In this document: piece by piece, positions 6,667 to 55,641 of the stretch | Numbering within the stretch: the first letter of the stretch is position 1 | Layout of the letters: each line of letters begins with the position of its first letter | Assembly (NCBI GenBank): GCA_964645315.1 | Contig: CAZYBH010000001.1 | Coordinates: 32,405-96,404, forward strand | Length of the DNA: 64,000 bases | Reading direction: 5' to 3' | Origin: an uncultured Candidatus Saccharibacteria bacterium | Lineage (GTDB): Bacteria > Patescibacteriota > Minisyncoccia > Phycocordibacterales > PALSA-1337 | The notes under the pieces: model-generated | What the model was told of the DNA's origin: nothing | Databases searched by the model: none | What the model saw: only the letters and a program-made list of their open reading frames with translations | Translations under genes and position numbers: made by a program

Positions 6667-6709
6667 ATAATTTGCTAGGTTTAACCTCACAAAGTGTTAT
6701 AATAAAATT

Positions 6710-19723: not shown

Positions 19724-19840
19724 GATTTTCTAGATCATATTGATAGTAGCATATTTAACTCGAATTTCTATCAGATATTTATTTAACCTGAAGATGTTTA
19801 GCTGATTGCAGAGCAAGTCTACTTTATGGGGTACAGATCA

Positions 19841-19859
19841 GCGGAGGGTAAGGGATTCG
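19841..19859. repeat. 19-bp direct duplicate of the tRNA-Ser 3' end (gcggagggtaagggattcg), putative att remnant
   Basis: Identical to 20007-20025 (3' acceptor/T-arm of the minus-strand tRNA). The intervening 147 bp is GC-rich. Confidence 0.7.
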
Positions 19860-20007
19860 GTCACGAGTTTCCTCGCTGCAGCTCGGAACTCGCGACCCCG
19901 ACTTGCGGCTCGGCGTGCTCGCCTCGCACGCTCCGTCTTTCTCATCTCCTTACTCTCTCGCAATATAATTCACTCAAAGGTCATTTAGACCTTTTCGCGA
20001 ATTATTG

Positions 20008-20092
20008 CGGAGGGTAAGGGATTCGAACCCTTGGTGAGTTGCCCCACACACGCTTTCCAAGCGTGCGCACTAGACCACTATGCGAACCCTCC
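20008..20092 (-). tRNA. tRNA-Ser (anticodon GGA) with long variable arm, discriminator G, no encoded CCA
   Basis: Reverse complement folds as a cloverleaf: acceptor GGAGGGU/ACCCUCC, D-loop AGUGGUCUA, anticodon stem CACGC/GCGUG with loop UUGGAAA (U33, anticodon GGA, A37), 16-nt variable arm, T-loop UUCGAAU. Confidence 0.8.
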
Positions 20093-20175
20093 TTTGCACT
20101 CGTCCATAATAAACTAGAGATGAAGTACTAGCAAATATGTGTGTCCGGGAGGTTGCACATCCCGAATAGAATTTT

Positions 20176-20184
20176 GTGGTATAA
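20176..20184 (+). promoter_or_regulatory. extended -10 promoter element (tgGTATAAT) upstream of small ORF
   Basis: TGnTATAAT 20 bp upstream of the AGGAGG RBS of ORF 20205..20423. Confidence 0.45.
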
Positions 20185-20204
20185 TATGACCAGAAGGAGG
20201 TAGC

Positions 20205-20423
20205 ATGAAAATGAATCACAAAAAGTCTCCAGTTGGTACAAGTGGGACCGGTCGGGAGGTTACTGTGAGAATCAGTGTTCATCGGGTAAATTTGGAGCGA
20301 GGTGGTAATTCTCCTGGACTCGTTCCAACTTCCAATCCCATTCCGGCAAATCATCAGGCCGGAAATCGTGGCCAAGCTATGCAAGATGAGACTTGGCCTC
20401 ACGGTCGCGTCTATAGCGACTAA
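20205..20423 (+). CDS. small hypothetical protein (72 aa), GC-rich, island-borne
   Basis: Strong RBS gaAGGAGGtagcATG. Immediately followed by an intrinsic terminator. GC content much higher than the host genes. Protein is low-complexity with no TM. Confidence 0.45.
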   Translation: MKMNHKKSPVGTSGTGREVTVRISVHRVNLERGGNSPGLVPTSNPIPANHQAGNRGQAMQDETWPHGRVYSD

Positions 20424-20425
20424 AT

Positions 20426-20459
20426 AAAACCGCTTCATGGGTCAGGGGAAGCGGTTTTG
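20426..20459 (+). terminator. rho-independent terminator (aaaccgcttc..gaagcggtttt)
   Basis: Perfect 10-bp stem followed by a T-run directly after the stop codon at 20423. Confidence 0.7.
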
Positions 20460-20460
20460 A

Positions 20461-20500
20461 AATTATAAACAAAAACCCCAGCTGTGTGCGTCCCGACGCA
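20461..20500 (-). terminator. rho-independent terminator for minus-strand ORF 20582..20997
   Basis: On the minus strand: cagctggcagtgcgtcgggacgcacacagctg hairpin followed by ggggttttt. Confidence 0.55.
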
Positions 20501-20581
20501 CTGCCAGCTGAGGTCCCGATTCCGCCACGGGCCAATACCGCGACAGTTTCGAAATCATCCTATTCTATAGCTTGAGTGGAG

Positions 20582-43557: not shown

Positions 43558-43878
43558 ACGACCATTGTATCAGAATTATTTTTTTAGTGAAATACAAAAA
43601 AGGCCGCGATGCACAACTCACACGTAGTGGTCATACATCCGGCCCGGTGAGTTGCGAGACATTACCAGCATCGATACCTCGAGGTTCGCTATGATGGCTA
43701 GTCATGGGATGGGTGTCTAATCCACCTTTTCGCAACTGATTTGAGTGTAGCATAACATCATTATTGATGCAAGGCATCATCTACCCACTCTACACCTTGT
43801 AGCCACGATTTTGGCAAGCAGAATATGGCTCAACAGAGCAACATTTGTGAGGTTTAACCTCGCAAAATGCAAAAACAC

Positions 43879-43906
43879 TTGACAAAGTTGATGGATATGC
43901 TATACT
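43879..43906 (+). promoter_or_regulatory. sigma-70-type promoter TTGACA-N16-TATACT (module copy A), preceded by palindrome tgtgaggtttaacctcgcaa
   Basis: -35 at 43879-43884, -10 at 43901-43906. ~80-bp module shared with 53881-53960. Confidence 0.6.
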
Positions 43907-43913
43907 ATTTACA

Positions 43914-44247
43914 GTAAGAACATTGAATACGACTGAATCGCACGCACCATAATGGGTTTGAAATTTGAACCTAATATGGTGCGCGCGACGACAGCTGAAT
44001 CTGAGGGTCAGGGGGAGGTACGCCCCAACCAAGCCTAATAGGCTAAACTCATGGTTCAGTGTACCTGGAGGAAACTTCGGGGATCAGTCGCTAGCGGCCA
44101 GCCCTTAAATAGGGCGCTTCATCTCCGATGTCACAGGAGAACGAGCATTGTGCTCGTAAGCAGAAAAACGTCCGAAAGGACGAAACATAGATGCTAGTGA
44201 CGGCATCAGGGCGCGGAGGATGAATCTTCCGCGCCCCTTTCTTTTTG
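43914..44247 (+). ncRNA. candidate structured RNA A (~330 nt, GC-rich, unidentified; ends in intrinsic terminator)
   Basis: GC-rich block in an AT-rich genome. No ORF with an RBS. Starts just after the consensus promoter. Ends with hairpin gggcgcggagga/tcttccgcgccc plus a T-run (44208-44247). Identity (RNase P/SRP/tmRNA/other) could not be established by eye. Confidence 0.45.
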
Positions 44248-44278
44248 TAAATAAATTTCAATTATTTCTCTGTAGAAA

Positions 44279-44315
44279 CTGTGTACAAAAACCCCGAGGT
44301 CTCGCCTCGGGAGAG
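44279..44315. repeat. third, diverged copy of the 52-bp repeat family (ctgtgtacaaaaaccccgaggtctcgcctcgggaga)
   Basis: Similar to 53829-53880 and 54388-54439. Contains hairpin cccgagg-tctcg-cctcggg. Confidence 0.7.
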
Positions 44316-44336
44316 TGGCTATGTTAGGATAACATT

Positions 44337-47289: not shown

Positions 47290-47750
47290 AAGAGGATATC
47301 GAAGGATGTCGGAGGATGTTGCACATCCTTTGTGAGGTTAAACCTCACAAAATAAACCGAGCTCCCAGAGGGAGCTCGTGTATGGACGAATCAGAGATCG
47401 TTCTGTCCGTCTATCCGCGGGAGGCGTGGTGGATGTTGGACGTTCCCGATGTTGAAGACGGCCGACAATCGAGACCAAACCTGTCATTGGGCCGTCTGGC
47501 CCGATTGGGTTTGGAATGGTTGGTCGGAGCCTTTTTGGGTCGTTCCATTCCAGGATCCCATCCGCGATGTTGTCGATCACTCATGGTGTTTTCCAATAAA
47601 TTCCAACCCCTCACTGGAGCTGGTTCGAGTAAATATACTACATCATTTATAAAAAAATGCCAATGGGGATTATTACCTCAGGGGATGTACCCCTCTATTT
47701 CATCGGGGCAAGACACATCCTTTGGCGAAAAAGTTTTATCTTTTCTTTAT
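47290..47750. other. GC-rich ~0.45-kb islet of uncertain nature (possible structured RNA or foreign DNA remnant)
   Basis: Marked GC excess. Contains palindrome tgtgaggttaaacctcaca, hairpin gagctccc-aga-gggagctc, and motifs shared with 20151 (ggaggttgcacatcc) and 62885 (gatgtaccc.tctatttcat.gggg). ORF-track ORFs here on both strands overlap each other and lack RBSs. Confidence 0.5.
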
Positions 47751-52832: not shown

Positions 52833-53807
52833 TTAATGGCAGACTCTTTGAAATTCGGTGCGATCTTGGATAGAAGGGGAGGTGACCGAGCTTTCATTGT
52901 AGGCATTCATGATAGAATCCTTGCCTTCAACATGGTCTAGGCCTAGAGCATGACCAAATTCATGGGCGAGTACTCTAGTCAGTTTATTGTTATCTTTGAA
53001 TTCATAAATATTGATATTTTGACCTTTATTATCTCTGACATATTCGCCCTCTTGGAATTCTGGTCCTGTACTTTGGCTGACATTATTGAAGGTACTGATC
53101 TTACCATTTATATCTTTGTTTAATGAATTCAATTCTTTAACTTTTGCATTTAATTGATCAACGAGATTATTTAGTTCGCGGTTTGCAGTATTTATATCGG
53201 TAGCTTTTTGATTTAGAGCTAGGCGCTCTCTTTCTATTTGATTGAAGCTATCTTTGCTAATTGATTTTTGTGCATTTAGCTTAGCTAAATCTTTTTCATA
53301 AGTAGATTTGCTTGCTTCATATTGGCTGACTAGATTATTTATACTTATTTTTTTGTTTTCATATTCCTTCTTTAGAGAATTGAATTGCAATTCAAGGTCA
53401 TTGTAATTAGATTTGCTATTTTCTATATTATTATTTATTTGATTTAGTTTGTCTGTCGTTCTTTGTCTTTCATCGTAGATCAAGTTAACCGCCAATTTAT
53501 AATTTGAAAAATCGGACAAGTTTTTTGCTTTTTGTTCATTGTAGATAAGGACATCATTTCCCTGGATTTTATTCCAAATAGAAGCGGAACTTTCCAATTC
53601 TTTTATGAAGCTCTCTTTTGTCTTGTCGAATCGTTCATCGAAATTGTTTACATAATAATAGATCGGTTTTGAGCAAGGTTTGTCTATACCAATATATGTC
53701 AGTATGTCTTCATAGACTGGCACATAGCGATCTTTATTGAAAATGACTATAGAAGCGGATGTAATCAGTAGAATTGATACCAAACTGTACTGCAGAGGTT
53801 TGCTCAT
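52833..53807 (-). CDS. membrane-anchored coiled-coil protein with C-terminal matrixin-like zinc metalloprotease domain
   Basis: HEFGHALGLDHVEGKDSIM (HExxHxxGxxH + Met-turn). N-terminal TM. Long N/Q/K-rich coiled coil. Confidence 0.7.
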   Translation of the reverse strand: MSKPLQYSLVSILLITSASIVIFNKDRYVPVYEDILTYIGIDKPCSKPIYYYVNNFDERFDKTKESFIKELESSASIWNKIQGNDVLIYNEQKAKNLSDFSNYKLAVNLIYDERQRTTDKLNQINNNIENSKSNYNDLELQFNSLKKEYENKKISINNLVSQYEASKSTYEKDLAKLNAQKSISKDSFNQIERERLALNQKATDINTANRELNNLVDQLNAKVKELNSLNKDINGKISTFNNVSQSTGPEFQEGEYVRDNKGQNINIYEFKDNNKLTRVLAHEFGHALGLDHVEGKDSIMNAYNESSVTSPSIQDRTEFQRVCH

Positions 53808-53828
53808 TAACTAATATTGTACATTATT

Positions 53829-53880
53829 ATTTCTGTGCAAAAACTGTGTACAAAACTCCTGAGGCCTCGCCTCGGGAAAT
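53829..53880. repeat. perfect 52-bp direct repeat, copy 1 (atttctgtgcaaaaactgtgtacaaaactcctgaggcctcgcctcgggaaat)
   Basis: Identical to 54388-54439. Contains hairpin cctgagg-cctcg-cctcggg. Confidence 0.9.
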
Positions 53881-53932
53881 GGCTCAACAGAGCCGTCGTT
53901 GCGAGGTTTAACCTAGCAAAATGTAAAAACAC

Positions 53933-53960
53933 TTGACAAATTTGATGAGTATGCTATACT
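53933..53960 (+). promoter_or_regulatory. sigma-70-type promoter TTGACA-N16-TATACT (module copy B), preceded by palindrome-like gcgaggtttaacctagcaa
   Basis: -35 at 53933-53938, -10 at 53955-53960. Module 53881-53960 ~85% identical to 43826-43906. Confidence 0.6.
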
Positions 53961-53966
53961 TATCAC

Positions 53967-54378
53967 GGATAGTTGAGATGAGCAGACCGCAGTACTCATC
54001 TCACTAGAGCGACAAGAGTTCGGTTGTGAGGGTCTATCACAATCGAAAACACGCAGTCTCGAGAGGACTGATTAGGTCTCAGTGACCTGTTGTTAAAATC
54101 TTGTTGCTCCGGAAATCGTCTCTCGGTATGGGTGCTTATTGGAAGGTAAACACTCATATAATTGATAGCACTTCCACCGCCGACTCGACAGGGCGGTGCA
54201 GGATCAGGTAATCTCGGCGAGACCGGGGTAGGGCAGAAGCCCATTACCGTTTGATGCCACTTGAGGGACGTCCTCTTGGCTAGGTAAATTCCAGATCCGC
54301 GATTCTCAGGGGTGGCTTGCGATGAGTCCGCAACCCACACAGTAATATATACCCCCGGAACGGTCCGGGGGTTTTTTC
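53967..54378 (+). ncRNA. candidate structured RNA B (~410 nt, GC-rich, unidentified; ends in intrinsic terminator cccccgga-acgg-tccggggg + T6)
   Basis: GC-rich block. No RBS-preceded ORF. Consensus promoter upstream. Strong terminator at 54352-54378. Whole unit bracketed by 52-bp direct repeats. Confidence 0.45.
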
Positions 54379-54387
54379 TTTATCCAA

Positions 54388-54439
54388 ATTTCTGTGCAAA
54401 AACTGTGTACAAAACTCCTGAGGCCTCGCCTCGGGAAAT
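54388..54439. repeat. perfect 52-bp direct repeat, copy 2
   Basis: Identical to 53829-53880. Abuts the ftsZ stop codon. Confidence 0.9.
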
Positions 54440-55641
54440 TATTTCAACCTAGACCTTCGAAGGAATGCTGGAATAGCACCCCAATCGTCATCATCATCGA
54501 CTTTTTCTTCTACTTTCTTTATTTCGACTTTTGGACTTATGATACTAGCTGGATCTTTTTTGGGTTCAACTGGAGCATTGAAGATTTTGCCTTTTTCTTG
54601 GACCCTTTTCATGATATTTGAAACCGAAGATTCGGTCGGAGCGGGGTTGATGTTTTGTTGGACTGGACTAGGCTTGCTTACGGCGCTCTCGGGGAAGCCG
54701 GTAGCAATAACGGTGATCTTGATCTCATTCTTCTTGAGCTTATCGTCTCTCACAGTACCGAAGATGATTTTTGCTTCTGGATCGATTGACTCCGTAATAA
54801 CTTTTGCTGCGTCTTGGATCTCGAACATGGTCAAATCTTCGCCACCAGCGATGGAGAACAGAACACCTTTTGCTCCGATAATAGAGACATCAAGCAAAGG
54901 TGAATTGATCGCTGCTTTGGCTGCTTCAATCGCACGATTTTCGCCACTGGCCTTGCCTATGCCCATAAGTGCTGAGCCAGCATTCTCCATGATGGTGCGG
55001 ATGTCGGCGAAGTCTATATTGATAAGACCAGGGGTCGTGATGAGGTCTGATATGCCTTCGACCGCTTGTCTCAAGATCTCATCGCACATACCGAAGGCGT
55101 TTTTGACTGTGGTCTCTTTGCCGATAGCAGAAAGAAGGCGATCGTTTGGAATGACGATGATAGCGTCTACTTCTTTGCGAAGATCTTCGAGAGCCGCTTC
55201 GGCAATGCGTGTCCTTTGTCTACCTTCGAAATAAAATGGCTTGGTCACAACTGCAACGGTAAGACAACCAAGCTCTTTTGCTGTCCTTGCTACTACTGGA
55301 CTTGCTCCGGTTCCTGTACCACCGCCGACTCCGCAGGTGACGAAGACCATGTCTGCACCCTTTACTACTTCTTGGATCTCTTCTTTTGTCTCTTCTGCAG
55401 CTCTACGACCGAGATCTGGGTTCATGCCTGTACCTAGACCGCGAGTTAGATTTTTGCCGATATTGATGCGCTTCTTGGTCAAGGAGCGGTGAAGATCTTG
55501 GGCATCAGTATTGATTGCGACGAAATCGACTCCTCTAACTTTTGAGGAAATCATGTGGTTGATTGCATTTTGTCCTGAACCACCAACTCCGAGTACTTTT
55601 ATTCGAGCAAATGCTTCGATATCTGGCGTTAAGTTTGGCAT
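54439..55641 (-). CDS. ftsZ: cell division GTPase FtsZ
   Basis: [10 protein letters not shown], tubulin signature [16 protein letters not shown]7 loop NIDFADI. Start trimmed to MPNLTPD. Confidence 0.95.

Follow-up and report, generated by a model that had tools for sequence, protein, structure and literature searches.

Beside ftsZ in a 64-kb stretch of Patescibacteria DNA (the whole stretch that was analysed, hereafter the window), two 52-bp direct repeats enclose a GC-rich non-coding unit, raising the question of what kind of gene this is and how it came to lie there. A previous reading made without database searches (the sequence-only reading) described a self-contained promoter-RNA-terminator unit, and considered a mobile cassette or target-duplicating insertion, an essential RNA with duplicated flanks, and an uncharacterised RNA family as its possible identities.

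Genomic setting

The window is a core chromosomal region containing rpoB, rpoC, sigma-70, dnaG, groES/EL, RNase J, ftsA, ftsZ and type IV pilus genes. Its predicted proteins gave no match to an integrase, transposase, reverse transcriptase, Cas or Nop protein (the Nop-domain search of the window ORFs used a cut-off of E <= 1e-5). The closest match to its FtsZ protein is 95% identical, and all ftsZ relatives belong to Patescibacteria metagenome-assembled genomes labelled Paceibacteria, Taylorbacteria, Parcubacteria or similar. Exact-protein look-ups found no identical protein either for ftsZ or for a spurious 114-aa ORF in the RNA unit. In most of 78 ftsZ loci trxB directly follows ftsZ, with a spacer of less than 150 bp in 40 of them; the metalloprotease gene and the RNA unit that lie next to ftsZ in the window are lineage-specific additions.

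Two further observations concern the surroundings. The metalloprotease gene and hisS each have a TG-extended -10 element only about 8-9 nt before the ATG and no ribosome-binding site (window 53808-53828 and 43558-43575; L129:17630-17651), which suggests leaderless or near-leaderless mRNAs. A GC-rich stretch at 19724-20581 (0.48-0.53), which surrounds tRNA-Ser (20007-20092) and contains a doubtful 122-aa ORF without a Pfam match, may hold another non-coding RNA.

Anatomy of the locus

The unit between the repeats, cassette 1, is 507 bp long (53881-54387), and its features are collected in Table 1. The repeats are 100% identical, as the sequence-only reading had stated, and are the sole copies in the window at up to three mismatches, with none expected from shuffled sequences. 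The near-consensus promoter, the palindromic operator-like site and the strong intrinsic terminator described in that reading were likewise all located, which supports a self-contained promoter-RNA-terminator unit; the RNA 5' end is predicted from the position of the -10 element. The unit had been placed upstream of ftsZ; because ftsZ and the metalloprotease gene are both on the minus strand, it instead lies downstream of, and convergent with, ftsZ. Its GC content (0.48-0.53, against 0.39 for the whole window) is sharply elevated, as had been claimed, relative to the metalloprotease side (0.27-0.35) but is similar to that of ftsZ itself. The region folds markedly better than shuffled sequences on both strands (z = -4.86 on the plus and -4.52 on the minus strand).

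Table 1. Features of cassette 1, its neighbours and cassette 2 (window coordinates)
Feature	Coordinates	Strand	Remarks
Cassette 2	43827..44320	+	5' promoter block and 3' hairpin module in common with cassette 1
Matrixin-type (Peptidase_M10) metalloprotease gene	52833..53807	-	Start 21 bp from repeat copy 1
Repeat copy 1	53829..53880		Metalloprotease side
Small hairpin GGCTCAACAGAGCC	53881..53894	+	Cassette 1 5' edge
21-bp palindrome TTGCGAGGTTTAACCTAGCAA, operator-like	53899..53919		Centre near -58; one of four intergenic copies in the window
Sigma-70-type promoter TTGACA-16-(TG)-TATACT	53933..53960	+	11 of 12 consensus matches, TG extension
RNA1, predicted ~410-nt non-coding transcript	53966..54378	+	GC 0.52, fold z -4.9
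RNA1 intrinsic terminator CCCCCGGA-ACGG-TCCGGGGG, then T6	54351..54378	+	9-bp stem at 54351-54372
Repeat copy 2	54388..54439		ftsZ side; occupies the ftsZ terminator position
ftsZ	54439..55641	-	3' end abuts repeat copy 2

The repeat itself is a predicted intrinsic terminator of ftsZ (hairpin and T-run) followed by a 22-bp tail. On the minus strand, copy 1 reads as a degenerate terminator hairpin, CCCGAGGC-GAG-GCCTCAGG, then AGTTTTG and the tail TACACAGTTTTTGCACAGAAAT, and lies directly upstream of the TG-extended -10 of the metalloprotease gene (TGTACAAT); the first base of copy 2 is the last base of the ftsZ stop codon. This terminator-hairpin unit is referred to below as the module.

RNA1 is non-coding and matches no known RNA family

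The plus strand of RNA1 has no coding potential under genetic codes 11, 4 or 25. On the minus strand, an ORF of 114 codons, for which no Pfam match was found, is broken in the related contig L085 into ORFs of 45 and 55 aa in different frames, in agreement with the non-coding character assigned earlier. A type I toxin-antitoxin locus was rejected, as the plus-strand ORFs of 30-46 aa are not hydrophobic, one of them crosses the terminator, and several single-base indels separate the window RNA from its homolog in L003.

Searches against Rfam gave no match to RNA1 at gathering thresholds, and the RNase P RNA, SRP and 6S families gave none in 53700-54550 even at E <= 10 with relaxed filters; with both settings, the two cassettes and their relatives returned terminator-type chance matches only. 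For tmRNA, ARAGORN reports only tRNA-Ser in the window and Rfam RF00023 has no match there. The same RF00023 model finds a Patescibacteria tmRNA in L118 (E = 1e-44), so the Rfam library works on this phylum. TIGR arrays consist of alternating 8-12-nt repeats with 9-nt spacers in 36-nt units present in 5-15 copies, beside a Nop-domain Tas gene (PMC12045711). Both a TIGR and a CRISPR array were rejected, since TRF finds no tandem periodicity in 53960-54380 or in 43900-44250 (the second RNA described below) and the window has no Nop-domain Tas gene. BLAST searches of the cassette 1 element against phage and plasmid collections yielded no match, and neither the promoter nor the module was found in scans of a viral contig collection.

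RNA1 is thus far known from two sequence types in two closely related lineages, its only homologs (92.7% identity) being in the species of L003, L085 and L088. Conservation along the molecule is uneven: 4 differences in alignment columns 2-146 (97% identity), 16 in columns 147-330 (91%), 20 in columns 331-390 (67%), and none in the terminator (100% between the window and L003). Given that ftsA third codon positions are 62% identical between the two lineages, this pattern argues for selection rather than just recent transfer, and is more in line with purifying selection over the first two-thirds of RNA1, counted from the 5' end. Concerning structure, RNAalifold on the two types gives 8 wobble-preserving changes and 0 broken pairs, whereas in an unbiased projection of the two sequences onto single-sequence folds 7 pairs are kept and 13 broken on the plus strand, and 2 kept and 15 broken on the minus strand. 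The two-sequence comparison holds 0 double compensatory changes, and a covariance model of the RNA1 5' domain detected no further homolog.

Large structured bacterial RNAs such as OLE, GOLLD, ROOL, raiA and HEARO occur in GC-rich intergenic islands, and all are in Rfam. RNA1 resembles them as a stand-alone unit in the 300-600-nt range, GC-rich in an AT-rich genome, structured and patchily distributed; in contrast to them, it has no covariance-model match, is limited to two closely related lineages, and has a fold that is a prediction without double compensatory changes. In summary, RNA1 is non-coding, belongs to no known RNA family and is sporadically distributed, so the earlier suggestion of an uncharacterised RNA family is supported, with no curated family matched in Rfam. 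Its gene is probably transcribed from the predicted promoter, terminated independently and regulated through the operator-like site, and its product may be a structured, possibly protein-binding, trans-acting RNA.

Occupied and empty alleles in relatives

Contexts of metalloprotease homologs were compared with the window, reading on the ftsZ strand. In L092 (type 1, empty), the ftsZ stop is followed by TTTTT-CCCCGAGGC-GAG-GCCTCGGGG-TTTTTG, TACACAGTTTTTGCACAGAAAT, AATAATGTACAAT... and the ATG, that is, by a canonical intrinsic terminator, the 22-bp tail and the metalloprotease promoter; this corresponds to the window sequence with the cassette and one of the repeats taken out. In L085 and L088 (type 2, occupied; the species of L003), ftsZ is followed by the hairpin, TTTTTG, the 22-bp tail, the cassette and a second hairpin, which is a diverged copy (CTTGAGGCTAGACCTCGGGG) with TTTTTG, and then by a palindrome and the metalloprotease gene. 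L083 (type 2, empty) equals L085/L088 minus the cassette and one hairpin copy, save for 2 substitutions. Since ftsA is 97.5% identical between L083 and L085, these form a near-isogenic presence/absence pair. The more distant metalloprotease-bearing L093, L094, L097 and L099 have spacers of 44-166 bp without the RNA, so that RNA1 is absent from these four as well as from L083 and L092. In all, seven relatives other than L092 and L083 show short spacers that lack the RNA, and most relatives are without it. Since the site is empty in close relatives and has a single module copy there, cassette 1 carries an accessory RNA gene subject to gain and loss, and not a housekeeping RNA.

These alleles bear on whether RNA1 could be a divergent RNase P RNA, tmRNA, SRP RNA or 6S RNA with duplicated flanks, an identity with which its size would be compatible, as would the strength of its promoter and terminator and its high degree of predicted structure. 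A housekeeping RNA should be present in all close relatives, and RNA1 is missing even from a near-isogenic one. In contigs L086, L087, L089 and L091 (1-140), which come from other samples of the L085 species, the end of a DDE-transposase-like ORF (rve_2, E = 5.5e-4, under the Pfam cutoff) directly adjoins the -35 element from which RNA1 is predicted to be transcribed, which suggests that RNA1 is dispensable and explains why genome contigs L003 and L084 break at that -35. Together with the negative Rfam and ARAGORN results, obtained with a library that does recognise a tmRNA of this phylum, these findings leave the housekeeping reading, and with it the essential RNA named in the sequence-only reading, close to refuted.

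The relatives also inform the history of the repeats. Compared with L092, L083 and L085, the hairpins of both window copies show identical derived changes (CCCGAGG...CCTCAGGAG), so duplication of, or gene conversion between, the window copies was recent. In L085, 4-5 of about 27 positions distinguish the two flanking copies, whose only identical stretch is CCTCGGGGTTTTTG, about 14 bases long; this argues against target duplication by staggered cuts. A transposon-like insertion with a 52-bp target-site duplication would account for perfect direct repeats around a discrete insert and for an empty site with exactly one copy. On the other hand, no terminal inverted repeats were found at the cassette 1 ends, the second cassette carries the module without duplication, and the L085 copies have diverged although L083 and L085 are near-isogenic; 52 bp is also far above the known transposase duplications. 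Such an insertion is therefore very improbable, and an insertion sequence or MITE was rejected for the missing inverted repeats and for a duplication of 52 bp where 2-14 bp is the criterion. Of the mobile cassette or target-duplicating insertion proposed earlier, the empty-site alleles support the first, as an insertion/deletion cassette, while target duplication of the transposase type is unlikely.

The 22-bp tail is apparently part of the cassette, because in L085 it stands between hairpin and cassette and because it recurs at the 3' end of the second cassette. As this tail is otherwise found only beside cassettes, L092 looks like an excision scar and not like a never-occupied site.

Sequence identity forms a mosaic along the locus. 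Between the window and L092 it is 97-100% for about 150 bp (the module and the metalloprotease start) and about 65% farther out, and the window and L083 reach 90-97% within the metalloprotease gene stretch 53505-53654. Between L083 and L085, ftsA and trxB are 97-98% identical, most of ftsZ 77-90% and the middle of the metalloprotease gene 65-75%. Across the metalloprotease gene (52833-53807), stretches of 90-100% alternate with stretches of 55-75% in comparisons with L083, L085 and L092, among strains with 82-86% identity in ftsA. Judged by these alignments the gene is a recombination mosaic among relatives, and homologous exchange among strains is evidently frequent.

Support for the occupied arrangement in the window

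If the chromosome were empty and the cassette a separate or differently located molecule threaded through the 52 bp, the occupied arrangement would be an assembly or population artefact. Empty alleles exist in nature. Logan contigs from two other runs give independent support for the repeat, as they stop exactly at window position 53858, the point at which a k=31 graph has to end when a repeat starts at 53829. Because they terminate inside the repeat, they are compatible with either state, and the occupied arrangement of the window is given by the window assembly alone. However, L085 and L088, which come from independent assemblies, span the entire occupied locus in a related species, and a 52-bp repeat, being shorter than a standard read length, should be resolvable. 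An artefact is accordingly improbable.

A second cassette and other structured RNAs

Cassette 2 is flanked by a bPH_2/AlbA_2-domain gene and hisS. Its 5' block (43827-43906) is 86% identical to 53881-53960, covering hairpin, palindrome and promoter, and this homology begins at the hairpin 53881-53894, at most 2 nt from the repeat boundary of cassette 1. Its 3' module (44264-44315) is 84-86% identical to the 52-bp repeat, which brings the module copies in the window to three. The cargo, RNA2 (43913-44243), is predicted to be exceptionally structured (z = -11.0) and has its own terminator, no similarity to RNA1 and no match in Rfam. The pentamer TGGCT is found at both ends of cassette 2 (43826-43830 and 44316-44320) and also follows the module at locus 1. 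No convergent gene adjoins cassette 2 and there is no upstream module copy; since no convergent gene is there, the module evidently travels with the cassette. In L129 the starts of the bPH_2/AlbA_2-domain gene and hisS are 80 bp apart, against 779 bp in the window, so that the cassette 2 locus represents extra DNA too. The 5' similarity of the two cassettes may in part reflect functional constraint or a conserved promoter architecture and not shared ancestry, because the promoter is generic and the hairpin recurs in L112/L116; the 3' module is the more specific common feature.

The site downstream of ftsZ has other contents in L004 and L005, which lack the module: convergent promoters of the RNA1 type there drive other RNAs, and the covariance model of the RNA1 5' domain detects neither of them. 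The L004 RNA was considered as a diverged RNA1 on the basis of a 5' CGGAUAG and five collinear short motifs, a relationship that neither nhmmer nor the covariance model of the RNA1 5' domain supported. In L005:7345-7600 (minus strand), a promoter of the same type precedes purine-rich tandem repeats (AAGAAGAAAAGAAG...) inside a long GC stem.

Other RNA candidates were also observed. A third unit beside hisS, at about 43592-43760 (minus strand), has a TTGCAT...TATGCTACACT promoter, about 130 GC-rich nt and a T-run terminator, and is absent from L129. A GC-rich non-coding island at 47355-47650 (minus strand; z = -3.6), between the T2SSE pilus ATPase gene and bipA, has its own promoter and terminator and no Rfam match. 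Since its position is kept in L084, L092, L093 (E = 3e-22) and L094, it looks like a core RNA of the clade, unlike RNA1. At least four strongly structured, promoter-driven RNA units are thus present in the window, none with an Rfam match.

Promoter consensus and putative operator

The promoter was examined as a possible cassette marker and rejected as such, as a metagenome scan found the pattern TTGACAAA-N4-ATG-N2-TATGCTATAC on 28 contigs (L101-L128), preceding protein genes as well as many GC-rich non-coding stretches. A long promoter consensus, TTGACAAA-N4-ATG-N2-TATGCTATACT, is widespread in Patescibacteria, and the RNA1 promoter conforms to this generic consensus of the phylum. None of the 28 contigs carries a homolog of RNA1, RNA2 or the L004 RNA; L112/L116 have ATGGCTCAACGGAGC, similar to the cassette hairpin, at the same distance from the -35. 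In L109, L111, L112 and L119 the promoter drives GC-rich non-coding stretches of 300-650 nt that end in terminators and have no Rfam match, and in L112 two or three such units stand in tandem.

The 21-bp palindrome TTGYGAGGTTTAACCTCRCAA is found at four intergenic sites in the window (6672-6692, 43845-43865, 47330-47350 and 53899-53919; 0 expected by chance), at varying distances from promoters, and also upstream of the metalloprotease gene in L083, L085 and L099. It is probably the operator of a regulator, whose putative regulon would comprise both RNA cassettes, a lytic-transglycosylase-like gene and bipA and, in relatives, the metalloprotease gene.

Proposed origin and movement of the cassette

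Considering these observations, the locus is best explained, with a probability of roughly 60%, as an accessory, non-autonomous cassette for one RNA gene, whose gain and loss would proceed by recombination or slippage between copies of the terminator-hairpin module. The module would terminate ftsZ on the ftsZ strand and also travel at the 3' end of the cassette; with one module at each end of the cassette, neither the terminator of ftsZ nor the promoter context of the metalloprotease gene is lost. Recombination or replication slippage across two module copies would produce gain or loss of the cassette, leaving a single copy, while recombination in flanking homologous DNA could spread the cassette between related strains; the two copies in the window would have been created or homogenised recently. 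The anatomy and the occupied and empty allele pairs are direct observations, and the direction of individual events and the recombination mechanism are inferred from them.

RecA-dependent recombination and replication slippage are general mechanisms by which sequence between short direct repeats is deleted, and both empty alleles are the exact products expected from exchange between the flanking repeats. Such deletion accounts for loss alone; a further step is needed for how the duplication arose and for the module shared with cassette 2, and the identity of about 14 bp between the L085 copies is short for RecA-mediated recombination.

In a rival account, a site-specific recombinase encoded elsewhere in the genome would move the cassette and recognise the hairpin module as its attachment site, much as happens with integron cassettes, pdif modules or Xer-dependent elements; RNA-gene cassettes would then form a family whose cargo varies. 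Two cassettes with conserved end modules and unrelated cargo are consistent with this, as are the confinement of the L085 exchange to about 14 identical bases beside the hairpin, the position of TGGCT after the locus 1 module and on both sides of cassette 2, and the presence of three different cargos at one site (window/L085, L004 and L005). However, no recombinase gene was found in the 64-kb window, and inspection recognised neither attC nor an 11-6-11 dif-like architecture in the module; a dif-like junction judged by eye was dropped, as one junction had no half-site at all. The module occurs in three copies in the window and in none of the viral collection, L004 and L005 lack it, and the evidence comprises two cassettes. 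Movement by a recombinase is therefore unlikely.

Comparison with known systems places the accessory cassette between established categories. Like elements bounded by attL and attR (Campbell-type at gene 3' ends, or Xer-dependent), cassette 1 is an insert bracketed by direct repeats, its empty site equals the occupied one minus the insert and one repeat, it carries no recombinase, and the duplicated sequence gives the target back its function, which here means termination of ftsZ and the promoter context of the metalloprotease gene. It differs from them in being just 507 bp long with a single RNA gene as cargo, in having a terminator-hairpin module as repeat rather than a tRNA, tmRNA or dif site, and in that homologous recombination or slippage may suffice. 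With integron cassettes and pdif modules, cassettes 1 and 2 have in common conserved ends, unrelated cargo, small size, a lack of mobility genes and, for cassette 1, presence/absence polymorphism. In contrast to these, they have their own strong promoter and terminator, encode RNA and not protein, contain no recognisable attC or XerC/D-type site, are not arrayed and have no integrase nearby. An integron cassette in the strict sense (attC, a promoterless ORF and intI/attI) was hence rejected, the cargo being non-coding under its own promoter and the window devoid of an integrase.

A broader reading, which we regard as speculative and would not expect to hold in full, is that Patescibacteria of the Paceibacteria type carry a family of non-autonomous RNA-gene cassettes in which the 3' hairpin module is both a convergent terminator and a recombination site. 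Each unit would combine a strong, regulated promoter with a large structured RNA belonging to a new class, followed by a terminator of its own and the 3' module. It would enter or leave intergenic spacers via the module as an RNA-cargo analogue of integron or pdif cassettes, in genomes that have hardly any DNA to spare.

Significance

Patescibacteria genomes are tiny and tightly packed. A literature search on their non-coding RNAs found nothing relevant, and these RNAs are essentially undescribed. The window holds two RNA units with common end modules, one of which has clean presence/absence alleles in near-isogenic relatives, and RNA1 and RNA2 would be new large RNA classes if their expression is confirmed. 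If the proposed account is true, module-bounded cassettes show how RNA genes can be exchanged among episymbionts, probably by way of natural transformation, without disrupting the adjoining essential genes.
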